64,000 bases of DNA from Tricharina praecox (taxonomy: Eukaryota), in assembly GCF_024521635.1 (NCBI RefSeq), contig NW_026250413.1, positions 372,001 through 436,000 on the forward strand. The letters are read 5' to 3'. A program made the position numbers and the translations under genes. The stretch's first letter is position 1. Every line of letters begins with the position of its first letter. Under the pieces are notes generated by a model. That model saw only the letters and a list, made by a program, of their open reading frames with translations. It made no database searches and was not told the DNA's origin. Below are positions 28,031 through 47,620 of the stretch, in pieces.

Positions 28031-28561
28031 CTTTTCTTCCACACCCATCAAGCCCCCCGGGGCAATCCATTCAATCAACCCAGCGGCCACCGGTACCACA
28101 TCCAACCAGCTCAACCAGCTACCGACACTTCTCACGGCCATCGGGTTTGACCTGCGGGACATGCGGGCGTACGCCGCGGCCGCCACTACCTACGAAGACC
28201 AATGAAGACAATAATCACGATGTCGACTGGCCTCTGGTACGTGGCCCCCGATCCGATGCTGTGTTTCACACACATCGGCGGGGGGTGGGGGGGAAAGGGG
28301 GTGGGAGGGGAATCATTTCCCTTCCCTGCGAGCGGCCGCTCGCCGTCGAGTGATGGCTATAAAGCAATTAACCAACCGTTCCTGCGCCCTTTGCTGGAGG
28401 TGACGGAAGTTATCAGGTATGTAGCACCGATTAGTTACCGCCGAACACGACGAGGGATATGTAACTAATACATTGGGCTCTGTACAGACAGCAGAGCGAG
28501 GAAGCTTCGGGGCGGCAAGGTGGCACGGGTAAATCAACCCGGATGTGAGAGGGGGAGAGAG

Positions 28562-28705
28562 GACCAAAGGAGTTGGTGTTCGGTGGAAAGAATTCCTTCA
28601 GTTCTGCATTTAGTCTTTTAGATCAGCCTCCAAATTGGCGGGTATATATCTCCCATGATCTACTACTGAGGTCGAATGCAATGATGATTAAACAAAAAAA
28701 AACAA
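28562..28705 (+). terminator. Repeated 3'-end/terminator-like module, copy 1 (others at about 30215, 31868, 35190, 38465; partial at 47395 and 48895)
   Basis: GAGTTGGTGTTCGGTGGAAA...TTTTAGATCAGCCTCCAAATTGGCGGGTATATATCTGCCATGATCTACT..GGTCGAATGCAATGATGATTAAACAAAA. It contains a TATATA element and ends in an A-rich tract. The function is inferred. Confidence 0.45.
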
Positions 28706-31700
28706 TGGTACCGTCTTTCTTTGGTCGGGTATATTCTGCATGTATATACCATGAATTATCTACCTCTGTGATCAGCTACCTACTCTACCGTATCTACGTA
28801 CTCGTTCATGATTTTTGTCCATTTGTAGATGGTGACCCTGTTGAGAGAGTGTGCAGTCTGTTTCGTCCCCTTACGTTGGCCGAGTGCTGTTCGATTCTCG
28901 ATAAGAAGCTTGAATATGTGAATATTAATGACAGAGTTGTCCTGCCTTCCACCGCGTGTACTAACTGTGTAGTGAGGGGTGGAGACCGCACGGCTTGCAT
29001 CATCACTCGGGATGAAGCAAGAATGCTACATACCGTACTCCCTACAGATGCCAGAAGGCATACCAAATTTGTACCAAAATCACGGGTGCGGCGAAAGTTA
29101 CAGGCAGCGTGGGCTCAGATATGTGAATGCTAACGACAGAGCCGCCCTGCCTTCCACCCTAGCGTGTACTGGTACCTAATGCCTAGGCGTGTGCGGGGAT
29201 GTGAGGTGCGGGGATGCGGTCTCGATACTGGCCGCGGTCTCAATACTGACCGCACACGCCGCACCACGCCGCACTAGGCCGCCCACACTTTCTGATAAAT
29301 AGCTCCTCTTACTTCCCTCTCCTTCCCCTTCCTCTCTATCCTCTCCTCATCACATACATCTACTTCACTTTCACACTCAACAAACCCCTCGGGGCAATCC
29401 GTTCAATCAACCCAACAACCAGTCCCATGCGGACATAAGCTGCCGCCACCGTCGCCCAGGCCGCCGCGAACCGATGATGTGTTTCATGCACATTGGCGGA
29501 ATCATTTCGACTACGACACTATAAACCAACCGTTCCTGCGCCCTTTGCTGGCGGTAACTGTGAAGTTACCAGGTATGTAGCACCGATTAGTTACCAACAA
29601 ACACGACGAAGGATATGCATCTAATACATTGGGCTCTATACAGACAGCAGAACGAGGAAGCGTGGGGGAGGAAAGGGCTAGGGCCCTGCCAACGGATCGG
29701 AAATCTTCTTGCATCTTTACCAAAATAACATCGACCAGAAGGAGCAACAACGACGGCGAACTGTGGACATGACCCTTGGGGGGCTCGGGGAATAATCCCT
29801 TGGAGCGGGGTTCGGAGTGGGCATCTCTTGATGCCCCTTCCGTCCCATCTCCCCGCCAGATGTCGGCTCTTCTCGCGAATAGTAGCGCTGCTCGCGGTCG
29901 AGCCACGATTACGACCCTTTCGGTCAACCGCTCGTCCGCCCTTTGCTGGCGCTTCCTAGGTATGTAGCACCGCACCGACTACCACCGAACGCGATGAGGG
30001 ACATGCATCTAATACAATGGGTTTCATACAGAGAGCGGAGCATCAGGAGAAAAAAAAATTCCGTTGAGTGCGTGTAGGCGGTGCTGACTTTGGTAACGCT
30101 GGGAACGCCCTCGAGCCATTGCATAGAGTGAATGCCTAGTCATTTCCAGATATGAACGACCAATGGCCAGTCTATTTCGTGTGTGTGTGTGTTGGGGGGG
30201 GGGGGGGTGGTGGAGGACCAAGAGAGTTGGTGTTCGGTGGAAAAAATTTCTTCGGTTCTGCATTTTGTCTTTTAGATCAGCCTCCAAATTGGCGGGTATA
30301 TACCTGCCATGATCTACTAAGGTCGAATGCAATGATGATTAAACAAAACAACAATCCCTTAGATCGTCAAAAATATTTCACCGTGACGGGGGGCGAGTGG
30401 GGGACACAGGGGGTAGTCCAAACTTGGTTACTAGCAAGGGACCGCCCACCAGCCGGCTGAAGGAGGCTGGCCTGTGGTGCGGGCATAGGTGGTGCGGCGG
30501 CGGAGGCGGCGAGGGATCTCTTAGTCGGCCGCACAGTCACCTCACGATACCACTTGACATCGGCCCGACATCATAACCTACACACTAGTTGCCTCCACCC
30601 GCCTGTCTCTCCACCCCCCCGTGCCGTAGCTCAACGCGGTGGAAACAATCAAATGGATAGGGCTCTAGCCGCCTCTTGCAGTAATATGCTCTGACCAGCC
30701 CGATCAGCCCCGAAAGGTCACTACCGACTATTCGGTTGCCGATCGCGCTGTCAGACTGTCAGCCTGCAGTAGCTCTCTGACTGGGTTCATTTCGGTTTTG
30801 AGAGGCTGAGGAGTTTGAACTTTGAAGGCAAAGCGTCTGTTGTGCTGGCTAGTGGTCCGCTTTACTTGTCTATAGAAGTCCTAATGAGATATTCGTGGAT
30901 ATTATAGTTGTCCTGAAGGCTGAAGTTGCCAGTTGCCGGTGGTCGCCATGCCTTTCACTCTGACGTGTACTAGTGTTTAGTTCCTCGGCGTGTGCGGGAT
31001 GCGGAGATGCCGGGATGCCGGGATGCGGTCTCAGTACTGGCTGCGGTCTCAATACTGACCGCACCACGCCGCACTAGGCCGCCCCCGCTTTCTTATAAAT
31101 ATCTCCTCTTCTCCCGTCTCCTCTCCATTCCTCTCTCTCCTTCCCTCATCACATACATCAAGCTCAACAACAACTATCGATAAATGCCTCCGGGCAATCT
31201 GTTAAATCAACCCAACCGCCAGCCCCATGCGGGCATAAGCCGCCGCCGCCGTCGCCCCGGCCGCGAACCGATGATGTGTTTCACGCACATCGGCGGAATC
31301 ATTTCGACTACGATACTATCAACCAATCGCTCCTGCGCCCTTTGCTGGCGGTAACTGTGAAGTTACCAGGTATGTAGCACCGACTATGTAACTACCACCG
31401 AGCGAGACGAGGGACATGCATCTAATTTAATCGGCTCCGTATAGACAGCGGAATGAGGAAGTGTCGGCGAGGCAAGGGCTAGGGCCCTGCCAACGGATCG
31501 GAGATCTTTCTCCATCTGTACCAAAATAACATTGACCAGAAAGAGCAATAAGTGGGGTGACTTGGGGGTGTTTGACCCTGGGGGGCGAGGGGTGGGGGCG
31601 GGGGAATAATCCCTTGAGCGGGGTTCGGAGTGAGCATCTTTTGTTGCCCCCCGTGGCCAGCAATCAACCGCTCGTCCGGCCTTTGCGGGCGGTAACCAGG

Positions 31701-32940
31701 TATGTAGCACCGGCTACCACCGAACGCGATGAGAGACATGAATCTAATACATTGGGTCCCATACAGATAGCGGAAGGAGGAAACGTCGGAGAGGCAAGGG
31801 AAAGGCGAAGGTGATGACCTTGTGTGGAGTCTGGAGACGGCGCAGGCATGAGAAAATGATTCCTTGAGTTCTGCGTTTGGTCTTTTAGATCAGCCTCCAA
31901 ATTGGCGGGTATATATCTGCCATGATCTACTAGGTCGAATGCAATGATGATTAAACAAAACAAAAACAATGGTACCGTCTTTCTTTAGTCGGAGTCTGTT
32001 CTGCGTGTATATACCATAAATTCTCTGCCTCTGATCAGCTGCCTACCCTAACGTACCTGTTTTCTGTACTCGTTCATGATTCTTATTTGTTTGTAGATGG
32101 TGACCCTGCTGAGAGAGTACATATATTGTCTGTTGATGGTCGCTTCCAGACTTCCAGTGCCCGTGTGGTGACTGCGCACTCCGCATCATAACTATGTAAG
32201 CCTCTTGGTAGTAGCCCATGGACTTTGTGACCATTCCAGTGGAAGACCGGGTAGTGTGGTGCTTCCGCTTTATCCAGGAGAGTATTGCCGTCTCCACTGA
32301 GTCCTGACCGATCCGATTAGCCCCAGAAGGTCACGGTTCACCTTTCGTTTGCCGATCGCACTGCCAGCCTCGCCTGGTTTCCTTTCGGAAGGCTGAAGGG
32401 TTGGAAGGCGAAGCGTCTGTACCGGCTGTTGGGCTGGGCTGTGGCCGGCTATACTTATAGCCTAGTAGTCCCGACTCCAGCGATGGGCAATGCGGCATCC
32501 CTAGATATCATGGTTGTCGTGACTCCCGCCGTTATCGGAGGTTGTCCTGGCTTCCGCTGTCGCCGTACCAACCACCTCGAGCTCGACGTAACTTACGTTC
32601 CGTCTGGTGGGTCCATCTGCCTACAAATAGTCTGCGATTCGCCACCGTATACATAGAACCCGCTTAGGTACCTGCCCTGCCACAGCACTGAGCGCTCTTG
32701 GCTACATATCTAAGTACCTGTGTCTGGTGCAGTGTCACGCCGATGGGGACATATGTTTTGTCCCCTTCCGTTACATACCAGAGTGCTTTTATATTCTTGG
32801 TAAGAATTCTAATGATAGGGTCGCCCTGTCTTCCACCACGGTGTGTAGTTCTTGGGCGTGAGCGGGGCTGCGAGTAATCTTAGATTCACTAATCGGTCGG
32901 ATACCTAGAGGAAGCGGATGGGCCTCGGGCGAGTACCCAA

Positions 32941-33576
32941 AGGGTCCTCAAAATTCTGGAATGGCGGTTGGTTGGACTTTAGCGTCATTCCGGTAGTGCA
33001 AAAAATGGAACCAATCAAAAGGCTCATAACCAGCGTTCAATTTGAGGGACCGGTTGGGCGACTGGTTGAGAGATAGTTGGATGGAATGATCATTCTGGAC
33101 GTCCGCCCTTACAGACAACATTCCACACGCATTCAGACAATAGTTACCCCCAATACAAATATTTACTCAGAATAAGGTGAGAAAATGCGCAGATTTACCA
33201 GGTTGTTGTAATCTATCACGAATGACAGATAGATCTTTTGCGAAAGGGTCTGTATCATCGTTACGGTCGAAAATTAAGTTTATAATTTGTAATCCTCATA
33301 CATTTGTGTTGATCGTTTGAAGCCTGTATTTTTTTCCGTGATCCATGGGGCATAATGTCGGAGGGGCATGATGTCGGAGGTTTGATAGTATCCGAAGTAC
33401 AAAAGTTTCTCAAGTTACCGTAGCAACGAGTGTTCGAGCACTTCATTCCTGGCCTATCCCTATAACGGCACAAGAGGTTACGTCAGCCAATCACACTGCT
33501 TTTGCACCACACCTCCGTCCCCGTTTAGGCACGCTAAAGTGCCACCAATTGCCCTTCCGCGAATTTCGAGGACCCT
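32941..33576. mobile_element. Non-autonomous TIR element (MITE-like), about 636 bp
   Basis: Left end AGGGTCCTCAAAATTCTGGAATGGCGGTTGGTTGGACTTTAGCGT versus reverse complement of the right end AGGGTCCTCGAAATTCGCGGAAGGGCAATTGGTGGCACTTTAGCGT. The TSD is unclear. Confidence 0.7.
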
Positions 33577-34419
33577 CATACTACATACTCCGTCGACCTG
33601 TGTGATTATCTGCCCTTCAGGCAGGAAGGATCGCTCTCCTCGCACACTGGCGGAGGTTATGTTTCAGTCTTGCAGGTATGCATAGGCTTTTTTTGTGGCC
33701 GATTACCTTGGGCGCCTTTTTGCGGTCGATCACCATGGGGCCATTGCTGTGTTTGGGAAAGCTGGTATCGTTTCTAGACAGCAGTGGTATCATACATAGG
33801 CATGAAAATTTGTATGGAATCACACTCTCTACACGACGTTGGACCGCACCAGTGATTCACTCTATGTGGGCATGGCGTCGTGACTCGGGATGAAGCAAGA
33901 AAGCTACATACCGTACTCCCTACAGATTCCGGAATGCATACCTTATTTGTGCCAAAATCACGAGTGCGGCGATACTTGTTACAAGCAGCGTGGGCTCGGA
34001 TATGTGATTACATACTAACGACAGAGTTGCCTTGCCTTCCACCCTAGCGTGTACTGGTGCCTATATATTTCCTCGGCGTGCGCGGGGATGCAGCGATGCG
34101 GGGATGCGGGCTCAACACCGCCCGCACTAGGCCGCACCTAGCCCGCCATTTCCACATAAATAGCTCCTCTCTCTCCTCTCTCTCTCTTTCTCTCCCCATC
34201 ACATACATCATCCTCAACATCAACACTCGATAAAACCCGCTTTCAAATCAAAGGCTCATCTCTCCCCTCTTCACTCTTTCTCCTCACCTCACCACCAACC
34301 CTCGACAAACCCCTTGGTGGGTCGTCTTACGCCGCCACCAGGAATGTGGTACCGCTCGGGCGGAATTATTTCCCCCCAGTAGTAGGGTGCCGGTGGCGGC
34401 GGTGGCGGCTAACCGCTGC

Positions 34420-34615
34420 CTTCATATTCGAGGCTCGGTATCGATTGATGATTCAACGGGCGTGGGAAGGCGACAAACCGTTCGGAATGGTGCTTCCCAA
34501 CTTCGTTAGCAACGCAGCAGGAGACGCGAGATCAAGAAGTGGGGTTACCGGGATGATTACCTCGTCGAACGAGTCGACGATTTCCCTCTTGCCAACGAGG
34601 AAGCATTCGAACAGT
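34420..34615 (+). pseudogene. Captured fragment of a LON substrate-binding-domain gene (LONRF-type RING/LON protein), copy in unit 4
   Basis: FIFEARYRLMIQRAWEGDKPFGMVLPN, then after a deletion IKKWGYRDDYL..VERVDDFPLANEEAFE. This matches the family pattern LHIFEPRYRLMIRR...FGMV...GY..GK.ER.DD. Confidence 0.8.
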
Positions 34616-34641
34616 CATGCCTAGGAATTTCCCAGGGACAT

Positions 34642-34885
34642 CCGTGACGTTGGCGAGATCACTGAGCTCTCCGGATGCGACTACCTCTCCATCTCCCCCA
34701 ACCTCCTCGAGGAGCTCTTCAACAGTACGTCGACAACGAGGCTGAGTTCCGCTTCGACCTCAATGAGGACCAGATGGCCACCGAGAAGCTTAGCCAGGGT
34801 ATCCGTGGTTTCGCTGGTGAGTGATCTCTCTGCCCCTCCTCACACGTACACTACTAACACTTACCCAGCCGACGCCATCACCCTC
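34642..34885 (+). pseudogene. TAL1: Captured C-terminal fragment of transaldolase including an intron (34817-34868)
   Basis: RDVGEITELSGCDYLSISPNLLEELFNS / YVDNEAEFRFDLNEDQMATEKLSQGIRGFA-[GTGAGT..CTAAC..CAG]-ADAITL, the classic eukaryotic transaldolase C-terminal sequence. Confidence 0.92.
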
Positions 34886-35858
34886 CGAACCCCCTCCCCC
34901 CCCCCCCCCCCCCCCCCCCCCGCCCGGCGACTAGCCGGGCATGGCACAAATCGTGCCATTGGGCGGAATTATTTTCCCCCGGGGGCGGAGGCGGCCGAGA
35001 TCATTGATGGTCCGTTCCTCCGCCCTTTGCTAGCGGTGACAGGTTACCAGGTATGTAGCACTGATCAACTACCACCAAAGGGGACGAGGGATGGAAATGT
35101 ATCTAATACGTTGGGCTCCATACAGACAGCGAAACGCGGAAGCGTCGGGGTGGCAAGGGTAAATCATGGGTGTGAGAGGGTGGGAGGAGGACCAAAAGAG
35201 TTGGTGTTCGGTGGAAAAAATTCCTTCAATTCTGTGTTCTTTTAGATCAGTCTACAAGTTGGCGGATATATACTCATGTAATCCGCCATGATCTACTATG
35301 GCCGAATGCAATGATGATAAAACAAACACAAAAAAAGGTACCGCCTCTCTTTGGTCGGGTTCTGCATTTATATACCATAAATTCTCCGCCTCTGTGATTA
35401 CATTAGAGTTGCCTATCAGCGGAAGTAGTAGTTGCGGCGGGAGAGTGAAGCAGTTACGGCGGAAGAAGGAGCTATATGAGCGATGAGCATCAGCGAGAGT
35501 AGCAATTGCGGCGGGAGGGGGAACAGCAGTTGCATCGGCAGTAGCAGTAGTAGTTGCGGCGAGAATAGTAGATGTGGTGAAGAAGCATGAGTACAGAATT
35601 GAGGCCCATTGGTAGAGGTGGAGGTATGAGGAGAAGAGACGAGACTTGACAACTGCAACTTTAAAGCGATATTCAACAGATGCTATTCTTATCCGGGCGG
35701 GCGTGAAACTACAGCTTCATCGCTGTCTCTGTTCCAGACGATGGCAGCTAGTGCCACAGATCCTCCATCCCATCGTTTGCCTGGTTAGATCTGGTTGACA
35801 GACCATTGACAAACGTTTGGGTTGCTGAAACGTGACGACAACTGTGGAAAAATGCTAA

Positions 35859-36449
35859 GGCCCAATTTGGTTCGCAGCTGCAGTTTAGAAATGTGCATTT
35901 TGGCGAGTTGAAGGTTGCCCAAGCTGCAGTTCCAAACTCTCAACTTCCCTGATGACCGTTCGGCAACCCAGATGTTCGACAGCACCACCCTTTTTTCTCT
36001 GACTTCGGGGCTAGTTACGCCAGAAAACCATAACTACATAAATAGCTTTTTACAGCGGCGACGTGGCCCTTCCTGTCACTTAGGGAATTTCCCCTCATAT
36101 CTCACAACAGCGGCTCCTCCTCTGCGCCGTACCAGCAAGTAACCCCTCCTATCCACAGTCGCAGCGGAGGAACCATAGGAGGTGGCCGGTGTCGGACATC
36201 TTACATAGGCGTAATGAAGGGGGACTATGGCTGGGTCGACTACAGGGCGATGCTGGCATGTACTACTGGTGATTGTCCATAGAGTTTATTTGTACTTACT
36301 GTGGCTCAGTCGACAATCTGCAGTTTCTCGAGTTGTCAACTTGGGGTGGTGTGTCAAACAGGCACCCATTCGGGGAAGTTGACGGTTCGAAACTGCAGCT
36401 CACTTTTTGTGTGGTAGATTCAAACTGCAGCTGCGAACCAAACTGGGCC
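35859..36449. mobile_element. PIF/Harbinger (Tourist-like) MITE, about 591 bp, nested in a larger insertion (about 35400-36570)
   Basis: TIR GGCCCAATTTGGTTCGCAGCTGCAGTTT versus GGCCCAGTTTGGTTCGCAGCTGCAGTTT (27/28 match), flanked by TAA and TTA. Confidence 0.8.
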
Positions 36450-37670
36450 TTAGATGCAACAGTTGCGCAATAGTTGCGCAATACCGCGGGGCCGCTTGTG
36501 AAATCTAATGATCGCGCAATCATTTTCTTACACACCGCTCACGTTTAAAAACCCCCCCTTTTTTTACAAGGGTACCTACTATACCGTATCTACCGTACTC
36601 GTTCATGATTTTGTGTGTAGACGGTGACCCTGCTGAGAGGGTGTGCAGCGAAGTCCGTTTCACCCCCTTCTGTTGCCCGAGTGCTTTTCGATTCTCTATA
36701 AGAAACTTGAATATGTGAATATTAATGAGAGAGTTGCCCTGCCTTCCACCCCGACGTGTACCTACTATAGTGGGGGGGGAGACCGCACTATTTCATAGAA
36801 CATCACTCGGAGCTTATGGTGTCTGTCGTCCGCGGAATCCGGATGGGAGTATCACACGTACCATTCCGTTGGCCTGTGTTATTATCTCAGATGCCTTTCA
36901 GCCGGAAAGGATCGCTCTTCTGAGTCTTCATACAGCGGAGGAGGTTGCGTTTCGGTCTTGTATGCATAGGCTCTTTTTGTGGTCGATTACTATGGGCCCG
37001 CCGCCCTTCGATGTGTTTAATCCCTATCATCTACGGACCTTCTGTGTAAGATGGGAAGATGGGAATGAATTCTTGTATGTAGGAAGTATGTATGGCATCA
37101 CATTTTCTTCACGATGTTGGACCACACCAGCGACTCACTTTACGTATGGCGTCGGGACTCGGGATGAAGTCGAAATCGATAGTGATAGGCAGCGTGAGCT
37201 CGGATGTGATTACTCACGATAGAGTCGCCCTTCGCGCCACCCTAGCGTGTACCGGTGCCTATGCACTTCTTCAGCGTGTGCGGGGATGCGGGATGCGGGG
37301 ATGCGGGCTAAACCCGCCCGCACTAGGCCGCACTAGGCCGCCCCACTTTTTTATAAATAGCTCCTCTCTCTCCTCTCTTCTCCCTTCATCTCTCTCCTCT
37401 CCTCATCAAATACATCATCCTCAACATCAACACTCGATAAAACCCGCTTTCAAATCAAAGGCTCCTCTCTCTCCCATTTTCACTCTTTCTCCCTCACCTC
37501 ACCACCAACCCTCGACAAACCCCTTGGTGGGTCGTCTTACGCCGCCACCAGGAATATGGTACCGCTCGGGTGGAATTATTTCCACCCGAGTAGTAGGGTG
37601 CCGGTGGCGGCGTTGGCGGCAGATAACCGCTGCTCTGCCCTTTGCTGGCGGTCACTAGGTATGTAGCACC

Positions 37671-37998
37671 ACACCGACGACCATGCTTTTCATATTCGAG
37701 GCTCGGTATCGATTGCTGATTCAACAGTTCGGAATGGTGCTTCCAAACTTCGTTAGCAACGGGGTAGGAGACGCGGAGGGGACTCCATTCATGGAGTATG
37801 GAACGATGCTGCAGATCGAATCCATATAAGTTTATGCGGACGGTCGCAGCCATATCTGGACGGTCGGCGTGTCCAAATTCAAGATCAAGAAGTGGGGTTA
37901 CCGGGATGATTACCTCATCGCTAAAGTCGAACGAGTCGACGATTTCCCTCTTGCCAACGAGGAAGCATTCGAACAGTCATGCCTAGGAATTTCCCAGG
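37671..37998 (+). pseudogene. Captured LON substrate-binding-domain fragment, copy in unit 5
   Basis: TPTTMLFIFEARYRLLIQ..FGMVLPN...PFMEYGTMLQIESI..ADGRSHIWTVGVSKFKIKKWGYRDDYLIAKVERVDDFPLANEEAFE, with frame disruptions. Confidence 0.85.
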
Positions 37999-38001
37999 GA
38001 C

Positions 38002-38132
38002 ATCCGCAACGTTGGCGAGATCATTGAGCTCTCCGTGCCCAAGAAGTTGTCGTCCGAGGATGCCACAAACCTTGACCTCGAGAAGCTCAGCTACGTCGAC
38101 AACGAGGCCGAGTTCTGCTTCGCCCTCAATGA
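38002..38132 (+). pseudogene. TAL1: Captured transaldolase fragment, copy in unit 5
   Basis: RNVGEIIELS / VPKKLSSEDATNLDLEKLSYVDNEAEFCFALNE. Confidence 0.88.
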
Positions 38133-38427
38133 ACCCAGCCCCAAGCGGGCATACGCCGCCGCCAGAGGGGGTCGTGGACATCACCATGACCGAACCGTTC
38201 GGGCGGGATTATTTCCCCCCCGCGTAGTAGGGTTGCGGCGGCGGCGGTGGTTACTAACCGCTGCTCCGCCCTTTGCTGGCGGTTACCAGGTATGTAGCAC
38301 CGCAGCGACTACCACTGAACGCGATGAGGGACATGAATCTAATATATTGAGTTCCATATAGCAGAAGAAAGATGAAGCTTCGGGGCGGCCAGGGTGGCAC
38401 GGGTAAATCAACCATGTGTGTGTGTGT

Positions 38428-38461
<34 letters not shown>

Positions 38462-40529
38462 GGAGGACCAAGAGAGTTGGTGTTCGGTGGAAAAAATTTC
38501 TTCGGTTCTGCATTTTGTCTTTTAGATCAGCCTCCAAATTGGCGGGTATATATCTGCCATGATCTACTACCTAGGTCGAATGCAATGATGATTAAACAAA
38601 AACAAAAAAGATACCGCGTTTCTTTGGTCGGGTTCTACATGTACAAGGTATGTATATACCAGAATTCATCTGCCTATGTGATCAGGTAGGTACTTTACCG
38701 CATTTACCTTACTCGTTCATGATTTTGTTTGTAGATGGTGACCCTGCTAAGAGTGAGTTTGCTGTCTATTGGTGGCCGCTTCCGGTGCCTGTGTGGTGAC
38801 TGCGCACTCGGTATCACCGGCCTCTTGGTTTAGTAGTAGCCCATGTGGACTTTGTCACTTTGCGACCTTTCTATAGTGGTGGGAGCCGTTTTGCCACATG
38901 TCCGCACATCTGATCGCTCCAGGGTTCAGCTTCCGTCCAAAACCCGCTGGTGAACATTAGTGGTCCTGGGGGATGGAGGGCTGGAGGGCTGGAGGGCTGG
39001 AGGGCTTCGGCTTCTGCGCGGGTGTTAGCTTTTTACTCTTTGCCCATGAGGAGACCGTGCAGTCTATAATGCTGCTTCCGCTTTATATAGATTTAGTATG
39101 AACGTTCGCTGGCGGCAGAATCCCCACGGCCGCATACATACCGCCGTCCTCTGACCAGCCCGATCAGTCCCGGAATAGGATGGTCAAAATACCTAGTATT
39201 TGTCGTATTGGACATCCACCTCGACGTGACTGTCAAGAGAAGGGGTATCATGCCATCCCGTTTACCTCGGTAATTGTCTGCCTTTCGGCATGGAATGATC
39301 GTTCTTCTCGCACAGCGGCGGAGGCTTCATTTCGGCCTTGTATGCATAGGCATTTCTTGTGGCCGATTACCATGAGCGCTTTTTTATGGCCGATTAGCGT
39401 GGGCCCGCCGCACTTTGATGTGTTTAATCCCTATCATCTACAGACCTTGTGCGTGTTTGAGTCGTAACCTACGGGTATTTTCTTTCATGTGTTTGAGAAA
39501 GTTGATATCGTTTCTCGATAGCAGCCAGTGGTATCATACGTTACGGTACATAAGAAGATGGGAATGATTGAAATTTGTATGGACTGCATCACATTTTCTC
39601 CACGAAGTTGGGCCTCGTCGGCGATTCATTCTATGTACGTAAGGCGTCGGAGTGAAGCAAGAAAGCTACATACTCCCCACAGAGGGCACACCTACCTAAG
39701 CATCAAAATGACGAGTGTGGCGATAGTTACAGGCAGCGTGAATTCGGATATGTGATTACTAATGACTGAGTTGTTCTGCCTTCCATTCCGGCGTGTACTA
39801 GTTAGTGCCTAGTTCCTCGGCGTGTGCGGCGATGTGGGCATGCGGGGGTGCGGTCTCAATACTGGCCGCGGTCTCAGTCCTGGCCGCGGTCTCAGTTCTG
39901 CCCGTGGTCTCAGTCCTGCCCGCACCACGCCGCACTAGGCCACCCACATTTTCTTTTAAATAGCTCCTCTCTCCCCTCCCTTCTCTCTCTATCCTCTCTC
40001 TCTCCTCACCATCAACATCAACACCCGACAAACCCCTCGGTAGGCATCCAACTCAATCTCAACGAACCCAGCGCCATGCGGGCATACGCCGCCGCCGCCG
40101 CGGCACGACACGATGATGTCGCCAACATTTTTTCCCTTCGATCGCCGGTGCCGCGCAACCCCACCGGCATCAGCCCTACTACCGAGCCGTGGAGTGCGAT
40201 TAGCGATGCCATCAAGGCTGGCGGCTACTTCCCATTGTTCGACATGGGCGTAGGTACCAAGGTTTCGCTTCGGGCGATGCCAACACCGATGCATATGCGC
40301 AGCCGCGCTGCATTGCCTAATCGAGCAGGGGTACCACGTTGCCCTTTGCTAATCGTTCGCCAAGAGCATGGTATGTCCTCTAACTACCCGGTAATCGTGC
40401 GAAATGTCTATGCTAATAAGATGATATGCTGCAGGGTCTACACAGTGAGTGTGTAAGCGCCGTTTAAATCCTCGCCGAATTCGCCGAGGAGGAAGAGACG
40501 AAGCGCGCGGACTCTGAGGATCAAGATCC

Positions 40530-41160
40530 TTGTCCGCCCCATGGGCCATGGGACAGGGACCCACACCGCAGCAGACGCCACAGAACGTGGTACAACGGCT
40601 CGGTGGTCCGTCACCTTCCCCGGCCTCGGTCCTAGTGCAGAACAGAGCACCTCAGCCGATGGCGAACGACTTGATACGGACTGCTCAGCAGTACGAGAAC
40701 CAACAGGCGGCGGCGGGGTCCCTTGTCAACGGTGGCGTGGAAGTGTTTCCCGTATTGAATCGGGCCCCGACCGCCACGTTCACCCCTGCGCAGCAGTGCC
40801 AGTTGGAACAGCAACGGCGCCATGCTATGTTACAGAACGAGCGGATGGGCCAAGCCTGTGCGCACGCGAGCAAGTTCCCGCCGAACGGCTCGCCGCCTCA
40901 GCCCCCGCTTGCGGCTCTCAACCGACCGATACCACGCCCCAACCCGCGGTGCCGCGTTCCCACCACCGACAACGCAGCCGGGTGGCGCCACAGCACAGCA
41001 ACCGGCAGCTCAGCGGCAATTTGTCAGCCTGACCCCGGAAACGCTAAGAAATTTCCCTCCGCATGTAGTTGAGAAGATCAGACGTCTCCCCCCCGGAGCA
41101 GTTGAGGAATTTCTTGGATAAGTTTGAGCGTCACCAAGCGCAACAGAGGTAGCAACAACC
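40530..41160 (+). pseudogene. Unidentified Q/P-rich coding fragment inserted in unit 6
   Basis: Open 180-codon frame (MGQGPTPQQTPQNVVQRLGGPSPSPAS...) followed by a frameshifted continuation (FVSLTPETLRNFPPHVVEKIRRLPPGAVEEFL). It is unique in the window and bounded by cassette repeats. Confidence 0.5.
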
Positions 41161-41470
41161 TGCTTTGCCAGTCGTTGGCCAAGAACATGGTTAGTACTCT
41201 ACCCGGTAATCCTGCGGGATTTCTATGCGCTTCTAGTTTGTTCGAGTATGCTAACATGATGATGAGAGTCGACACGCCGATAGAGACTAGGATAAAGAAT
41301 ATCCTCAAGGCTCTAATGAAGTTGAAAGACGAGGAGACGATGCAGGGTCAATACGGTGAGCGTGTAGACGCCTTCGCCGAATCCGCCGAGGAGAAGAAAC
41401 GATTCTTCCATCCTCGGCGGATTCTCCGAGGAGTAGGAGAAGAAGCACATCGACTCTCGGATCAAGATCC

Positions 41471-41790
41471 ACGGGTAATAATGCGCTGGGAAATACCACT
41501 CCAATGGAGGTGGACACACCCGTCACTGGTTCATGTATGCCTTTCGCTACCCTTAATTCTTATTTATCCGCAAGAACTGACTGATATCACTAGCCATCAA
41601 CCAAGCTAATCCGGAGATGCTTGCGGATGACAACCACGGCGAATACTTACAAGCTGCCGATCAACAATTTCAACGCCGGCTACTTGCTCAAGACCATCTA
41701 CCAGCGCATCATCAATTTTGAACGACAAGGGCCAAGGCCCCAACAAACAATGGCTCAGGAATTGGTCGATTGCACCACTACCCACCCACC
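41471..41790 (+). pseudogene. Unidentified intron-containing coding fragment in unit 6
   Basis: RVIMRWEIPLQWRWTHPSLVH-[GTATGC 41535..CTGAC..TAG 41593]-PSTKLIRRCLRMTTTANTYKLPINNFNAGYLLKTIYQRIINFERQ reads through in frame. Confidence 0.55.
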
Positions 41791-42129
41791 TAGAAGCATC
41801 GATGCGCCGCGGCGCACGATACCTTCGTTAGATTCTCCGTTCGGAGCACTACCAGCACCTCAGGGCCAGATTGGTTGCCGCCCTTTGCTGGCGGCAACTC
41901 GATAGGGACGCAGCATCCCCGCTGCCCCGCAGAATAAGTACGAGTCAGCGACTGTCTTTTGGGCCATGTGGGCTGGCGTTGCGTCCCCTCGCCAGACTGC
42001 CAGGCTGCTGTGGCTCTCCCATAATTTGGGGAGCTCGAGGCGAGCTGCGGACCGTGGTCCGTGGTTCGGAGGAGAAGCAGCAGCACATATGTGCTGTCTG
42101 TCGTCCGATTCCCGTCTTCCTTGATATTT

Positions 42130-42500
42130 TCTTTCCGTTTTTGCTTTCTGTTTTTGCTTTCTGTCTTTGCTTTTCTGTTATTGCTTTCTGTTTTTGCTTT
42201 CTGTTTTTGTTTTCTGTTTTTGCTGCGTGTTTCTGTTCCTGTTTCTGTTCATCTGTTTTTGTTTTCTGTTTTTGTTTTCTGTTGTTTCTGTCTTCGTGTC
42301 TATCGGGTTGAGTGGAGAGGGTTTAGTTGAAAGGTTCTGGCAGAGAGGGTCTGGCGGGGAGAGTTGGGTGGAGAGTGTCGAGCGGACGGTTGAGAAGGCC
42401 AGCGACAAGATGACTGACAAGTCGGTTGAGAAGGCGGTTCACCGGGATGTCGAGCGGGCGGTTGAGCGGGAGATTAAGCGGAGAGTTTTGGTGGAGGAAG
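42130..42500. repeat. (TTTTGCTTTCTG)n minisatellite followed by 12-bp period GTTGAGCGGGCG repeats; also at about 45835-45980 and 46975-47300
   Basis: Seen directly; part of the 3' region of units 6 and 7. Confidence 0.85.
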
Positions 42501-42918
42501 ATAACTAGTACTGTACCCACTTGTATTGCTTTTTCCGTCAAAATAGGAACCTATCTCGCCCACTTTGGCTGCCCTGGCTGAACAGACAGTTCTGCCAGTT
42601 TTCCCGGGAACAACTGCCAGACATATCCAAACTACCTGGGAACTGACAGCCTCTGTTCCCAACTGAACCGGGAATAAAATCAACCAGAACTGAACTGTTT
42701 AAACCAGTGTTTCCATTTCAACCGACTAACTGTTGGAGGGTGATAGATTCTCTGCCCCTGGGATCAGCTACTTACCTAATCTACCGTATCTATGAGGTAG
42801 GTACTCGTTCATGATTTTTGTTTGTTCGTAGATGGTGACCCTGTTGAGAGAGTGTGCTGTCTAGACAGTTGGTGGCCGCTTCCAGTGCCCGTGCGGTGAC
42901 TGCACAGTTGGCATCATA

Positions 42919-44068
42919 TCCCCTACGTGTCCGGCGTTTGTAAATTTGTTGCACCGCACTAAGTTGGAGAGAGAGAGAGAGATCTTCCTGTTTTATTTCA
43001 CATGCAGCCCATCTAGACTAGGTATGACGAACCCACGAACTCCGTTTCCTGCCCGCCCTGGCCAGTCGAGGTGAAATCCCCGATACCGACCAGTCCGATA
43101 CGGCTCCCCACTTCCCCTGCCCATCTGCCTCGGGCAGACACAAGCAAAAGCAAAAAGTTCATTGACAGTAAAGACCGGTATGGGCCTGCATGCCCGCTCC
43201 TCCTGCTGCCCCTCGCCTCTCTCCCCCGTCTTTCGCTTCCGCTCCACACAACTTATCACCGTGTGTCCTCCTCTCCGACTTCCTCGCATCGGCCGCAGAC
43301 GCAGTACCCTGCTGGGCACTCTTGCTCTGCCCCCAATGCGATGCTCGCCTCCTCCTCATCCTCCTCCTCCCGATCTGGTGGATCTTTTCTCCCCACATCC
43401 GTCGTTCCTAGAAACTCTAGGATTGCCTCGCTGCACCGCTGCAGCGCTCGTCGGCGAACAACTCTGCTATCGAATACCTCTCTTTTCTTCTCTCCGTCTC
43501 CTTCCTAACCTTTGGCGCACTAAGTTGGCCCAATTTGGACCGATGCAGAAAGGTTGGCAACGAGTGATATCAAAAGCATTCGGCGAGTGGACTCTTCCGT
43601 AGAGCAACTTGTGTAAGTTAGTAGAAACAGGCTCTCTACCATTATGTATCTAGCGACATACATTCTCACTTCGCTCCTCCCGAAGCTTTTCCAACTATGA
43701 CAGTGTAGTAGTACCAGTAGAGTCCGTCGCCGGTGTAGTAGTATCCGCCGGTGGCCCGTCTGCAACATGACTGCCTATGTTTGACTCGAGTCTCAGCCCA
43801 ATAACCTCTGTATCAGCGCTGCTGCTCATTTCTTTGGTATTGGCACCGAGGATGTTTGAACTAGCGGTGGTCAGACTGCAGAGGCGGCGACAGCGACAGT
43901 CATGGTACCTAGCAACCGTAACTGGTAGCAATCGTGACTGTACCAGCACAGCTGCAACCAGACTGATCGAAACAGTGAGCTGTGTAGTCGTGTAGACGCA
44001 CTGCCGCCTCCTAATCGGGCATACTTTGTAGTGCAACAAATTTACACACGCCCCGGACATGTAGGGAA
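42919..44068. mobile_element. Non-autonomous Tc1/mariner-type element, 1150 bp, TA target-site duplication
   Basis: TA|TCCCCTACGTGTCCGGCGTTTGTAAATTTGTTGCAC ... GTGCAACAAATTTACACACGCCCCGGACATGTAGGGAA|TA. Removing it restores GCATCATA-GGCCTCTTGG, as in the uninterrupted linker copies at about 32183 and 38811. No transposase is recognised inside. Confidence 0.88.
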
Positions 44069-45050
44069 TAGGCCTCTTGGTAGTAGTTACATCACCCATC
44101 TAAATTTTGTCACTTTTGACCATTCCAGTGGGAGCCGTTTTACCATTTCTCTGCACATCCGTTCGCTCCAGATTCCGTCCGAAACCCGTCCGAAACCCGC
44201 CTGTGTATATTCATATCTAGTCCTGGGGGGCCTGGGGCCTTTAGCCCTTGCCCGAGTATTTGCTTTGTGCTCTTCGTTCATGAAGGCTGTGCAGTCCGGT
44301 GCTTCCGCTTCCGCTTTATCTAGATCTAGATCTAGTATCGCCGTCCTGTGACTGGGCCGATTAGCGCACCATTCGCGTGCCGATCACGCTAACAGCCTAT
44401 CAGCCCCCAGCAGCTCCCTGCCCGGGTTCCTTCCGGAAGGCTGAGGAGTGTGAACTTTGATAGCGAAGCGTCTGCTAGGCTAGCCAGTGGCCGGCTTTAC
44501 TTAGTATAATAGTCCTAATGAGGTAGGTATTCCTAGATATTATAATCTATGGTTGTCCTGGAGGCTGAAGTTGCCGGTTGCTGGTAGACGCCCTGCCTTC
44601 CACCCTAGGGTGTACTGGTGCCTAGTTGCTCGGCGTGTGCGGGGATGCGGAGGATGCGGGCTTAACCCCGTCCGCACCAGGCCGCACCAGGCCGCACCTA
44701 GCCCGCCATTTTCTTATAAATAGCTCCTCTCTCTGCCCTCCCCTCTCTCTCTTTCTCTATCCTCATCATCAACATCAACACCTGACAATCCCCTTGACGG
44801 GCATCCACCTCATATGCGCAGCCGCGCTGCGTTAATCGAGCAGGGGCACCACGTTGCCCTTTGCTAATCATTCGCCAAGAACATGGCATGCACTCTAACT
44901 ACCCGGTAATCGTGTGAAATGTCTATGCGCTTCTATAGACCTAGTTAGAGTATGCTAATATGATGATATGATGCAGGGTCTACACGGTGAGCGTGTAGCT
45001 GCCGTCCAAATCCTCGCGGAATCCGCCGAGGAGGAGGAGAAGAAGCGCAT

Positions 45051-45447
45051 TGCCGGCTCGCTTTTCTCTCTTGCAACTGGCAAATCCCTTCTCTACCAGG
45101 CGGCAACTTCCTACTTCCTCCAGTCCTTCGTAACCCAGACCATTTCGTTGAAGTTGCAAAACTACTTCTACCACCGTCTGATGGCGATAATTCCGGATCC
45201 AACCCATGGCGAAAAGCCGACTACGTTCCAGGGCATCAACAATGACCGGATGTCTATCGACATTGAGATGAATTTTGAGGCAGTAGGACCATCAGCACTC
45301 ACGATCGAGGACACGGCGAACTCCTCGCACGCGGGGGGCTACACAGCCACCATCCCCTTCGACCCAGTGACAGGCGACACCATCACGCCCTCACCCGAGG
45401 TGACGACCGATCCCCTGGAGCTCGAAACCGACAGCGAAGCCTCGCGG
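45051..45447 (+). pseudogene. Unidentified coding fragment inserted in unit 7, in frame with the cassette exon
   Basis: Stop-free stretch of about 130 codons (AGSLFSLATGKSLLYQAATSYFLQSF...DPLELETDSEAS) between two copies of the MMQGLHGERV..EEEKKR repeat. Confidence 0.55.
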
Positions 45448-45643
45448 TGCTTTGCCAGTCGTTGGCCAACAATATGGTTAGTACTCTACCCAGTAATCGT
45501 GCGAGATTTCTATGCAGTTCTAGTTTGTTCGAGTATGCTAACATGATGATGATATGATGCAGGGTCTACACGGTGAGCGTGTAGCTGCCATCCAAATCCT
45601 CGCGGAATCCGCCGAGGAGGAAGAGAAGAAACGATTCTTCCAT

Positions 45644-45704
45644 ACGGCGCGACATGAAATATGGAACCTTCAGGACTGGAATGCAGGCCACGCCTGTCAA
45701 TGGA
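45644..45704 (+). pseudogene. Probable short glycoside hydrolase family 16 fragment
   Basis: RRDMKYGTFRTGMQATPVNG resembles the fungal GH16 segment D(I/M)xYG(S/T)FRxxMxxTxVNGT that precedes the catalytic ExDxE motif. It is only about 20 codons long. Confidence 0.45.
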
Positions 45705-45979
45705 AAGTTTGGGGAGCTCGACGGTCTGGCGCTGGCGAGCGGGACCGAGGCGAGCCGCGGACCGTGGTCCGCGGCTCGGTGGAGGAGCAGCAGCACTGAT
45801 GTGCTGTCTGTCGTCCGATTCCCGTCTTCCTTGCTATTTTTCTTTCTGTTTTTGCTTTCCGTTTTTGCTTTCCGTTTTTGCTTTCTGTTTTGCTTTCTGT
45901 TTTTGCTTTCTGTTTATGCTTTCTGTTTTTGTTTTTGTCTGTCGGGTTGAGTGGATGAGTGGAAGAGGGTTGAGCGGCG

Positions 45980-46350
45980 AGGCATGGTTGCGGGTGGGTG
46001 GAAACTATCCGCAAGACTATCCTGACGCGAAAGTCCGGCAGTTCTTCAGAGGCGTAAGTTGGCTCTAATCTTCCCGCTCCAAACGCCCTGCAAGTTGCAG
46101 CTACTGACAATCGATACAGTGCGGTACGAACACAAAAACAGCCTGAAGGTTGTCAACGAGAAGAATGGAAATTCCGCCACGGCTACTTCCCGAGAGAGAG
46201 TCTACTCCCAGCCACTATCGAGTTTGACGCCAAGGATTCTGTTCTTACGGCCTAGACGACAGCCATGAAGATGATCGACGGTTTCGCATTGAGAGACAAG
46301 TCCGCGCTGGGTCGACTCGGATGCTCTACCTTACCAGAGCTTGGGCCGTT
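45980..46350 (+). pseudogene. Unidentified intron-containing fragment in unit 7
   Basis: Unique sequence with GTAAGT(46054)..CTGAC..CAG(46119), lying between two copies of the GCGAGCGGGACCGAGGCGAGCCG repeat. Confidence 0.45.
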
Positions 46351-46439
46351 TAGCGAGCGGGACCGAGGCGAGCCGCGGACCGTGGTCCGTGTTCCGTGGT
46401 CCGGTGGCAACGCAGCAGCTCATATGTGCTGTCTGTCTT

Positions 46440-46842
46440 CAAAGGCGCAAGATGGCGCCGAGCACTGTCGCCCGACATCGACGTACCGATTGAGCGTCTT
46501 TACGCTCCCTCCCGCGAACGTCTTGTTCCGTTGTCACGAGTTATCTCGTGCACAGCATTACGACCATCTTCCAGAGCGGGACTCGACCAACTACGCAGCG
46601 TTTACACGCCTGGACTGCATACGAGCACGCAGAATGAAGGCGAAGATTATTGCTGGGCGTCCGATTGATCCTGCCGTGTGGGATGAGCGTGCTCTCGGTC
46701 TCGCTCAATTCACTGAAGACGAGCGAGCGGGAGTATTCGGCACAATCTATTGGATAGTCCTATTTTCATAGGAAATGTGGTCCTGGCCCTTGGATGACTG
46801 GTGCGTTCCCGGGCCAGGCTGGCAGTTTGGTAGACCGTCGAG
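46440..46842 (+). pseudogene. Unidentified coding fragment in unit 7
   Basis: Protein-like frame ...RARRMKAKIIAGRPIDPAVWDERALGLAQFTEDERAGVFGTIYWIVLFS*EMWSWPLDDWCVPGPG with a single stop, bounded by cassette repeats. Confidence 0.45.
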
Positions 46843-47620
46843 ATGGCTCTCCCAAAGTTCGAGGAGCTCGACGGTCTGGCCGCTGGCGAGCGGGACCGAA
46901 GCGAGCCGTGGTCCGTGGTCCGGGTTCGGTGGAGGAGCAGCAGCACTTATGTGCTGTCTATCGTTCGGTGGTGTTCTTGCTTTCTTTCCATTTCTTACAT
47001 TCGGTTTTTGCTTTCTGTTTTTGCTGCGTGTTTCTGTTCCTGTTTCTGTTCATCTGTTTTTGCTTTCTGTTTTTGCTTTCTGTTTTTGCTTTCCATTTCT
47101 GCTTTTCTGTCTATCGGGTTGAGTGGAGAGGGTTTAGTTGAAAGGTTCTGGCGGAGAGGGTCTGGTGGGGAGGGTTAGGTGGAGAGTGTTGAGCGGGCGG
47201 TTGAGAAGGCCAGCGACAAGACGATTGACAAGGCGGTTGAGATGGAGTTTGAGCGGGTGGTTGAGCGGGTGGTTGAGCGGAGTGTTTCGGTGGAGGAGGA
47301 TTGACTCGCGGGGACTCGGGGAGGGCTGGACGGAGAGCGGCCAGCGGCCAGTGGTCGGAGACAGCCGGGTGGAAAAGGATATCTACTTATATAATCTGCC
47401 ATGATCTACTACATACATAAGGTCGAATGCAATGATAATTAAACAACAAAAACAAAACAAAAAGTGTGTCGTTGGCAAAACGTTCCGTTGTTCAGGAGAA
47501 TGCTTGGAGGATGCACGAATACCACGAGCGAGGGAGTGGATTTCTGACATGGCTGGGCTTGGTTGAGCTTGGTTACAGGAGGTGGACCGGACGGGACGAC
47601 AACTGGACTATGATAACTAA

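Follow-up and report, generated by a model that had tools for sequence, protein, structure and literature searches.

Host-Gene-Like Pieces Between Duplicated Modules in a Tandem Array of Transcription Units of the Fungus Tricharina praecox

Seven Tandem Units With a Common Backbone

The locus examined here lies in a 64,000-nt stretch of the nuclear genome of the fungus Tricharina praecox (Pezizales; contig NW_026250413.1, positions 372,001 to 436,000 of the forward strand). This whole stretch is referred to as the window, and coordinates are counted from its first nucleotide. Between 27.8 and 47.5 kb it carries an array of seven tandem paralogous transcription units (27787..47463, + strand), in which pieces foreign to the family are set between re-copied stretches of the units' own sequence, an arrangement that we tentatively attribute to template switching. 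Self-comparison by BLAST returned 87 high-scoring segment pairs of at least 80 nt, and 285 in a more sensitive run. A TATA-type motif occurs seven times (27962, 29294, 31094, 34155, 37352, 39955, and 44715), a count reached by none of 100 shuffled sequences, and a 3' motif is common to six units (28653, 30307, 31920, 35286, 38557, and 47399). The latter had eight matches in total, a number equally reached by 0 of 100 shuffles; six are exact and lie within the array, and two with two mismatches were left out of the copy count. Unit 6 is the sole unit without the 3' motif. The census of modules comprises seven promoters, six exact 3' motifs, eight copies of the intron module of units 1-5 and four copies of the related module R1.

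Units 6 and 7 are members of this seven-unit tandem family of polymerase-II-type transcription units. The family backbone starts with a strong TATA promoter and a short first exon, which are followed by an exon-intron-exon module, the R2 repeat and a 3' module with an A-rich end. It conserves no coding frame as read from the sequence, since the frame opened by the ATG of the first R1 copy of unit 6 closes at codon 11 and the frame of the R2 tail is broken in unit 7. Unit 6 also has, in its promoter, 4.1 copies of an 18-nt unit, GCGGTCTCAGTCCTGCCC (39850-39923), present in about two copies in the other units; in units 2, 4, 5, and 7, there are 2.4-3.9 copies of a 10-11-nt unit of the CCGCAC type (CCGCACTAGG or a variant) just 5' of the TATA box. 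At the other end, a 45-nt core (CCATGATCTACTA..GGTCGAATGCAATGATGATTAAAC) with an A-rich tail was found at 30304-30348, likewise in units 1, 3, and 5, and in at least 25 other contexts of the DNA run X1. This core may be the end of an element similar to a short or long interspersed nuclear element (SINE or LINE) that supplies the family terminator; its pattern had no match in the metagenome collection.

The units are transcribed and spliced. Two sequencing runs, X3 and X4, were treated as cDNA-like solely on their GT..AG joints. In contigs from both, the module intron of unit 3 (31700-31766) is removed (joint 31696 to 31764, cut at +3, GT..AG), as is an intron of unit 6 at 41535-41593 (joint 41534 to 41594, GT..AG, 0 mismatches over 839 nt). 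A further joint, from the module 5' site at 29569, was found in X3/X4 in a paralogue outside the window. Joints in the DNA runs with short sides (e.g., 47085 to 47388) were excluded. A cDNA-like contig of unit 6 begins at 41287, within the intron of its second R1 copy, and this intron evidently stays in some transcripts. For the R1 introns of unit 7, splicing is predicted, in that the NCBI model discussed below (P0001) reads across 45477-45562 (PTIW/VYT). No Rfam family was found at threshold (five weak matches, E 0.058-0.61), the tRNA search found none, and no snoRNA boxes were seen by eye in the introns.

Repeats and Inserts of Units 6 and 7

An earlier note on this DNA had described units 6 and 7 as running, both alike, in the order promoter, R1a, insert X, R1b, insert Y and R2, and the sequence, its repeats and the self-comparison agree with this order. 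Alignment of the copies resolves R1 into an exon-intron-exon module with a short flank ending in ATG, an intron and an exon flank. The signals of the intron are fungal, with GTATGT, GTTAGT or GCATGC at the 5' site, then GCTAAT or GCTAAC, and CAG at the 3' end. The exon flank folds into two hairpins (z -2.0 in R1a of unit 6, -2.5 in R1a of unit 7 and -3.4 in R1b of unit 7); the intron part shows no unusual degree of structure (z +1.75 and -0.87). The eight R1-related modules of units 1-5 follow the pattern GCCCTTTGCTGGCGG..CAG and then GTATGTAGCACC..ACAG. The second repeat, R2, is composed of a hairpin block and a 13-nt tandem array of 8-12 copies with a GGTTGAG-rich tail. Its hairpin block gave z -4.56 in unit 6 and -3.98 in copy a of unit 7, these being two of the three full copies of R2. 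In three of the six stretches folded (R2 blocks and R1 flanks), namely R2 of unit 6, R2a of unit 7 and R1b of unit 7, none of 200 shuffles folded as well. Peptides of R1 and R2 had no match among 1.84 billion representative proteins. A search of the metagenome collection with the intron-module pattern of units 1-5 returned seven loci, which were dismissed as chance matches; they have no BLAST similarity to the array and a G+C content of 36-57%.

Unit 6 begins with its promoter and backbone first exon (39776..40100, +), with TTTAAATAG at 39955, a CT-rich tract and ATGCGGGCATACGCC in the exon. It is followed by an aspartate-aminotransferase-like fragment in sense (40101..40291, aligned over ~40121-40246), which is unique and absent from unit 7. 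R1a (40340..40529, +) has its ATG at 40368-40370, an intron at 40371-40436 (GTATGT..GCTAAT..CAG) and an exon flank with the two hairpins at 40437-40529. Insert X6 (40530..41160, +) is unique and contains a 184-aa open frame followed by a frame change. In R1b (41161..41470, +) the intron (41190-41344) is interrupted by a 62-nt insertion (41266-41327) and the exon flank has a partial internal duplication; the copy ends in GATCAAGATCC, like R1a of the same unit. Insert Y6 (41471..41961, +) has an intron of its own, the one at 41535-41593 spliced out in the cDNA-like contigs, and a remnant of the intron module of units 1-5 (CCGCCCTTTGCTGGCGG, ~41876-41905). The unit closes with R2 (41962..42508, +), made up of an upstream extension, the hairpin block (42011-42105), the 13-nt array (42127-42283, 12 copies) and the GGTTGAG-rich tail.

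Unit 7 opens with a promoter and a shortened first exon (44565..44854, +; TATAAATAG at 44715), lacking a counterpart of the stretch 40056-40291 of unit 6. R1a (44855..45050, +) comprises the ATG at 44881-44883, an intron at 44884-44976 with the 5' site GCATGC, and an exon flank at 44977-45050 that stops 27 nt before the point where R1 ends in unit 6. Insert X7 (45048..45447, +, sense) overlaps the R1 backbone by 3 nt (CAT) at its left junction and is in frame with the R1 ATG. R1b (45448..45643, +) has its ATG at 45474-45476, its intron at 45477-45562 (GTTAGT..GCTAAC..CAG) and its exon flank at 45563-45643. In both R1 copies of this unit, the ATG that precedes the intron shares its frame with the exon flank (MGLHGERVAA..). 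Thereafter follow a 60-nt Y7 with R2 copy a (45644..45955, +; R2 from 45704, with hairpins and a 13-nt array at 45837-45935), the unique piece U1 (45956..46352, +), a partial R2 copy b of 88 nt that holds the hairpin block only (46353..46440, +), and the unique piece U2 (46441..46792, +). U1 has a predicted intron at 46054-46119 (GTAAGT..CTGAC..CAG), used by model P0001, and U2 contains a weak PHD-like match in sense at ~46511-46600. The unit ends with R2 copy c and the family 3' module (46793..47463, +), that is, an upstream extension, hairpins, a 13-nt array at 47000-47110, the tail and the A-rich end. R2 thus appears three times in unit 7, as the earlier note had stated: at 45704-45955, as the partial 46353-46440, and in a copy ending near 47300, with the unique stretches 45956-46352 and 46441-~46792 between them.

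Insert X7 and Its Parent Gene

For X7, a parent gene could be recognized. Exactly 45048-45447 matches two 2.2-kb transcripts (depth 93 and 144) at 93% identity, with 28 mismatches and 3 gaps. The alignment occupies transcript positions ~800-1200, and on both sides of it the transcripts are unlike the window. In DNA run X1, the variant letters of the parent are found at single-copy depth together with those of the window, which indicates that parent and X7 copy coexist; X1 depth gave no sign of a second near-identical source. Furthermore, X7 is 79, 66, 46, and 44% identical to relatives' proteins of 301-503 aa (E 9e-58 to 1e-10), two of them from Sphaerosporella brunnea, and eight more distant representative proteins match it as well. 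The reading frame of these relatives continues past both breakpoints, which marks X7 as an internal fragment that was cut within an exon. We conclude with confidence that X7 is an internal piece (~residues 225-350 of ~500) of a conserved protein of the Pyronemataceae.

A 134-aa frame of unit 7 matches at 100% identity the 260-aa NCBI 'hypothetical protein BZA05DRAFT_452118 [Tricharina praecox]' (P0001), as expected if the window comes from this species or from one that cannot be told apart from it. Used as a query against the representative proteins, P0001 found 10, one being P0001 itself and the other nine matching the X7 part only. The X7 frame ends in a stop, after which ~1.9 kb with introns follow. 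A PDB match of this frame to a Ktr protein (E 0.007) was set aside as due to chance.

The differences between X7 and its parent are mostly synonymous. The codon figures rest on the 15 of the 28 differences that were listed, 12 of which fall at third codon positions; 11 of the 14 affected codons are synonymous, to be set against 98 synonymous and 304 non-synonymous sites. Were the copy neutral and the parent constrained, third positions would be expected to hold ~44% of the differences, and 12 or more out of 15 has P = 0.005. In addition, the single indel is an in-frame loss of 3 nt, and in two of the three amino-acid differences it is the copy, not the parent, that retains the residue of the relatives. 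Judging from these codon comparisons, X7 seems to have been under constraint, at the level of the protein (P0001) or of the RNA.

Other Pieces Resembling Host Genes

Less pronounced resemblances to host genes were found in other inserts. In unit 6, 40121-40246 aligns with aspartate aminotransferases over 42 residues including NPTG (best E 0.003, yeast enzyme 1yaa); most of the 60 chains listed, out of 84 matched, are aspartate aminotransferases. Unit 4 carries a composite insert similar to Lon-N and transaldolase (34421..34880, +; Pfam and PDB). Its transaldolase piece matched TAL_FSA of Pfam twice at collinear profile positions (E 0.0057 and 0.0032) and PDB at E 0.001, and it retains an in-frame 52-nt intron of its own (34817-34868). 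A copy of the composite insert in unit 5 (37689..38160, +; LON_substr_bdg E 1.6e-4) has a different internal deletion and is flanked by two copies of the intron module of units 1-5, one truncated and one complete. Units 4 and 5 hold one composite insert with complementary internal deletions, and a third, undeleted and highly expressed copy lies outside the window in cDNA-like contigs of depth ~300. In U2, the PHD-like match is to PF15446 (E 1.7e-4, under the curated cut-off), and a PDB search with U2 found no match. The similarities point, with weak to moderate strength, to an origin of the aminotransferase, transaldolase, Lon-N and PHD-like pieces in host genes. All five pieces identified by homology are in sense, and the introns of Y6 and U1 are on the same strand. 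No parent gene was found by tblastn in the window outside the array (321 segments).

Several other matches were given no weight. An antisense eIF_4EBP match (E 1.3e-4) that crosses the junction of X6 and R1b is doubtful, and Pfam matches with E 0.012-0.089 (JetA, Trehalase, MinC, Med12, HEV, Connexin) were regarded as noise. As to whether X6 and X7 might be neighbouring parts of a single parent gene, X6 has, by eye, no similarity to the X7 family (P0002-P0005). Two homopolymers were also noted in units 4 and 5, namely ~36 C at 34890-34925, at the right end of the unit 4 transaldolase fragment, and ~33 G at 38428-38460, at the start of the unit 5 3' module. Units 1, 2, and 4 have shorter G- or GT-rich versions at the backbone place of the latter run.

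Junctions and the History of the Slots

Contigs of DNA run X1 span R1a/X6 and Y6/R2 of unit 6 as well as U1/R2b/U2 and U2/R2c of unit 7 (five junctions) with 0-1 mismatches, and the arrangement is therefore not a misassembly of the window alone. Cover in DNA run X2 is low at X6 (2.4) and Y6 (1.0) against ~4-6 elsewhere, a difference that was not used as evidence of polymorphism between strains. X6 and X7 are mutually unrelated, as had been claimed; neither has similarity elsewhere in 27-49 kb, and their last 15-60 nt are no more alike than shuffled sequence (p 0.32-0.92). It had further been proposed that both inserts end at the same base. Indeed, TGCTTTGCCAGTCGTTGGCCAA resumes at 41161 and at 45448. 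However, the two R1b copies are orthologous, so that what appeared as two coincident insertions amounts to one inherited junction and one replacement. Identity in the 5' part of R1 is 91.5% between the two R1a copies and 92.1% between the two R1b copies, as compared to 77-80% between R1a and R1b. R1 copies thus group by position, which implies that the R1a/R1b duplication predates the split of units 6 and 7 and that the X slot was refilled at least once. There is also a weak hint that R1 homology extends ~25 nt further left in unit 6 (anchored test p 0.04-0.05, controls 0.06-0.11); if real, it would render the common edge of X6 and X7 trivial. Within unit 7, a comparison of R1a with R1b shows 23 differences among 101 sites of the 5' part and a single one over ~80 nt of the 3' part (Fisher p 0.004). 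The 3' part is a recent gene-conversion tract, and homologous recombination acts on the repeats.

The claim of different inserts in equivalent slots holds for the X slot, but slot Y of unit 7 is nearly empty, the 60-nt Y7 aligning loosely with the R2 extension, of which it is probably a diverged version on this alignment. A left edge of R2 at TGGCTCTCCCA, as proposed earlier, did not survive alignment, as homology between the ends of Y6 and of U2 reaches ~50 nt farther in the upstream direction (p 0.004 in a local alignment). Recurrent hotspots beyond chance are not borne out, since a single orthologous repeat copy underlies the edge of the X slot and that of R2 had been placed wrongly. These observations bear directly on the possibility of a dedicated acquisition system, in which staggered site-specific cuts at the two ends of R1 (or R2) would be followed by ligation of a captured piece and by fill-in that duplicates the repeat, after the manner of CRISPR adaptation or the capture of integron cassettes. 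Such a system could be suggested by the left edge of R1 common to X6/R1b and X7/R1b, by the right edge GATCAAGATCC common to R1a/X6 and R1b/Y6 of unit 6, and by the repeats that flank every insert. However, with R1b orthologous in the two units the left edge is one event, the right edges of R1 in unit 7 are 24-27 nt short, the edges of R2 are variable or not edges at all, and the duplicated stretches differ in extent between events. Moreover, the organism is eukaryotic, and the repeat contains spliceosomal introns. No candidate enzyme gene was detected in the window, where Pfam was run on 65 of the 174 open reading frames of at least 110 aa and on 100 six-frame segments of the array; nothing in these resembled Cas, integrase or transposase genes. 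We consider a dedicated system highly improbable, and no acquisition enzyme is needed or seen.

The earlier note had also stated that the layout, although formally reminiscent of such arrays, is neither that of clustered regularly interspaced short palindromic repeats (CRISPR) nor that of an integron, and this was upheld. The likeness lies in the sequence of repeat, unique piece and repeat under one promoter, with a duplicated repeat accompanying a new piece. The present locus differs in being eukaryotic and nuclear, with 90-250-nt repeats that contain a spliceosomal intron, with host-gene pieces and with variable repeat extents. CRISPR repeats are short (~25-40 nt), nearly identical and regularly spaced, their spacers are of uniform length, and cas genes lie nearby in a prokaryotic or viral setting. 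Here the array repeats measure 88-310 nt and are 76-93% alike, the unique pieces measure 60-631 nt, and this fungal locus had no Cas domain in the frames and segments scanned. An integron would possess a tyrosine-recombinase integrase gene, attI, and cassettes bearing attC at their ends; here no integrase domain was found in the scanned frames, no attC-like sites were found, and the pieces, which are internal gene fragments, have no common 3' site.

On the other hand, acquisition accompanied by repeat duplication proved a fair description of the locus, with foreign pieces between re-copied backbone in units 2/3, 4/5 and 6/7 and in R2 of unit 7. At least four cases of an insert between duplicates can be distinguished: ~215 nt is duplicated around a common ~190-nt insert in units 2/3, ~150 nt around the Lon-N and transaldolase insert in units 4/5, and ~200 nt in R1a-X-R1b, and R2 pieces are repeated around U1 and U2. 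As far as comparison within the array reveals, the foreign stretches never include promoter, 3' module or inter-unit sequence, which makes fusion of neighbouring units by deletion a poor explanation. The same observation weighs against a history with no special mechanism at all, in which stray DNA would have been end-joined into a fragile array and then subjected to unequal crossing-over, duplications, fusions and differential deletions, the repeat-spacer appearance being a by-product. Part of the locus agrees with such a history. The condition named earlier as a refutation, one ancestral insert deleted differently in two units, does occur in units 4/5, but it does not seem to apply to X6 and X7. 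The missing 40056-40291 counterpart and the gene conversion in unit 7, the R2 'edge' that dissolves on alignment, and the weak hint of further R1 homology in unit 6 are equally in its favour. However, it requires at least two steps for each of the at least four cases, and the orientation of the pieces is non-random. We regard it as unlikely.

Proposed Insertion by Template Switching

Our favoured, though tentative, explanation is that the inserts arose as template-switch (copy-choice) insertions, linked to replication or repair, with flanking duplication, later reshaped by gene conversion. Most likely, they are copies of internal stretches of host protein-coding genes pasted in sense, the source being DNA or unspliced RNA, because the captured pieces keep introns (transaldolase 34817-34868, Y6 and U1). 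A polymerase copying a unit would depart, copy a few hundred bases from a different gene that is transcribed, and re-enter the unit upstream of its departure point. One such event would yield duplicate, insert and duplicate, that is, a foreign piece with the same 90-250 nt of backbone on either side, and several switches would yield the series R2-U1-R2-U2-R2 of unit 7. The hairpins of R1 and R2 would be plausible stalling sites. Homologous recombination between the direct repeats would then bring about gene conversion, deletion or replacement of the intervening DNA. We infer template switching itself, the stalling at hairpins and the order of events; what was observed is a distant copied segment flanked by duplication of the host site in the at least four cases above, with the source of X7 still present at single-copy depth.

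Templated insertions elsewhere consist of distant stretches pasted into a host site, with local re-copying on both sides and several switches per event. The locus shares with them the copied distant piece between duplicated host sequence, and differs in that the insertions are fixed in the germ line and concentrated in one small transcribed family, with all identified pieces in sense. Template switching of this type, i.e., fork stalling and template switching (FoSTeS) or break-induced replication mediated by microhomology (MMBIR), is treated in two papers (PMC8421209; PMC5120786).

A number of findings do not sit well with template switching. At X7, the sole insert where microhomology can be read, the left junction has 3 nt (CAT) and the right one none, and the sense orientation of five out of five pieces is not explained by DNA template switching alone. 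Unexplained are also the identical right end of R1 before X6 and before Y6 and the abutment of two unrelated inserts, X6 and X7, on R1b at one base. The mostly synonymous divergence of X7 is unexpected for a randomly pasted pseudo-exon. As to parentage, the aminotransferase, transaldolase, Lon-N and PHD-like matches are all below cut-off or at E 1e-4 to 6e-3. X6 had no match in the protein search (longer proteins) or in PDB (both frames), Y6 had none among longer proteins or in PDB, and no parent of U1 was found. Finally, run contigs revealed that further members of the family exist outside the window.

A rival explanation in keeping with the orientation of the pieces is template jumping of a reverse transcriptase, whereby a family transcript would be copied from its 3' module, with jumps to unspliced nuclear RNAs and back, and the chimeric cDNA would be recombined into the array. 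Besides the sense of all five pieces, the family's 3' end is the 45-nt core with an A-rich tail, and the core recurs, as the end of a SINE or LINE would, in the further X1 contexts (17, 8, and 15 loose ends), inter-unit homology ends at the A-rich tail in two of the six units, and an R1 with a fixed left edge and variable right edges fits run-off at the 5' end of an RNA. Chimeras produced by template jumps of a LINE are known in Magnaporthe; PMC2104539 describes the WEIRD, MGL and Mg-SINE chimeras as multi-part, including a highly expressed non-coding RNA, and as transcribed in some cases. With LINE-mediated chimeric retrogenes (U6-L1 type) the units have in common the same-sense concatenation and a retroelement-like 3' part. 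They differ from them in keeping introns, in the lack of flanking direct repeats, none of which was found, in including the promoter, and in up to nine segments per unit. Retrogenes are intronless, but introns stand here at 34817-34868, 41535-41593 and 46054-46119 and in every copy of R1 or of the related module, so that three captured pieces and the backbone alike retain them. In addition, every unit includes a promoter, no target-site duplications were found, there is no poly(A) at internal junctions, and no reverse-transcriptase gene was detected in the open frames scanned. This alternative seems to us rather unlikely.

Capture by a transposon is a further alternative, according to which a non-autonomous Helitron-like or Pack-type element would gather host pieces stepwise and form tandem arrays. 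It would be in keeping with this alternative that one transcribed element holds pieces of several host genes, mostly oriented alike, that hairpins lie close to the ends of modules, and that family members exist elsewhere in the genome. Gene-fragment capture of the Helitron type has reportedly been found in fungi (PMC4289320). In maize, according to PMC3288121, Helitrons form chimeric transcribed elements that acquire host-gene pieces stepwise and have multiple termini. The present units share the chimeric, transcribed character and the pieces of several host genes; they differ in that neither termini nor target-site duplications nor high copy number were found and in that duplicated modules separate the pieces. 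No Helitron ends (5' TC, 3' CTRR with a subterminal hairpin) were recognized on reading the edges of units and modules, where the tandem array hides the true ends, and on the other strand the edges of modules end in ..AAGCA or ..AGCCA instead of CTRR. As for Pack-MULE or CACTA elements, there are no terminal inverted repeats around any unit, and comparison of the 3' flank with upstream sequence gave no target-site duplication (longest common word 6-8 nt). Depth in run X1 is near single-copy for the promoter, R1 and R2 bins (5.7-16 against 6-8.5), which suggests a low copy number, and no Rep/helicase or transposase domain was found in the frames scanned. We deem transposon capture improbable.

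Two other kinds of system invite comparison. Introner-like elements of fungi are several closely related copies of one short spliceosomal intron per genome, the repeat being limited to the intron and present in many unrelated genes, and the locus resembles them in its multiplied related introns. It differs in that homology runs 30-130 nt into both exon flanks and the intron part is not unusually structured; within the window, self-comparison found no copies of R1 or of the related module outside the array. With exon shuffling and chimeric genes from tandem duplicates the locus shares X7, a piece of an older gene that is fused in frame with a promoter, start codon and intron new to it and has diverged from its parent mostly at synonymous sites; most of the other units here have no intact frame. 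The locus is real and unusual, and is best placed under the formation of chimeric genes by templated insertion, as a new form of it that is seated in a tandem and transcribed family.

Neighbouring Elements and Genes

Between units 6 and 7, and outside both, lies a 1.1-kb element (42933-44052) with 22-nt terminal inverted repeats that are 95% complementary. Its depth is ~25-30 times the local depth in the DNA runs X1 and X2, and it is therefore a high-copy non-autonomous DNA transposon; four of its open reading frames scanned against Pfam gave no match. Just 3' of unit 7 are two small inverted-repeat elements (47616-48053 and 48690-48887). One of them has 31-nt arms 376 nt apart (..GGACCCGTTTGGATG..) and is similar to a miniature inverted-repeat transposable element. 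In the other, arms of 60 nt are separated by 78 nt, and the arm resembles TCTAC..ACTCGTTCATGAT, found 3' of the 3' modules of several units. Further 3' of the array, on the reverse strand, are a 1157-aa open frame (49647-53117), CTG/TTG-rich on the + strand and without Pfam match, and a 1314-aa open frame (53197-57138) with a Myb DNA-binding domain. Pfam matches in the window around the array are to heat-shock factor, phosphofructokinase, Rad51-like, R3H, HAM1-like, and Myb proteins.

Implications

The significance of the locus depends on which of the above explanations applies. If only decay in a fragile array were involved, the locus would serve as a warning that repeat-spacer layouts arise without acquisition machinery. 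At the opposite end, one could imagine a 'gene nursery' or decoy, i.e., a highly expressed, intron-bearing family that repeatedly copies sense pieces of the transcribed genes of the host into fixed slots bounded by re-duplicated modules. At least some of the pieces, such as X7, would be retained by selection, be it as truncated proteins or as RNAs required to remain similar to the message of the parent. We give little credence to this idea; if true, it would represent a eukaryotic, self-directed counterpart of repeat-spacer acquisition. If template switching holds, the array would constitute a compact natural record of the assembly of chimeric genes, with fresh, deleted and converted intermediates side by side. 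Promoter, start codon and intron would then come from a fast-duplicating family, and the coding pieces from old genes. Under the same explanation, the preference for transcription and orientation of the donors, as well as selection on pasted gene pieces, could be testable in a culturable fungus.

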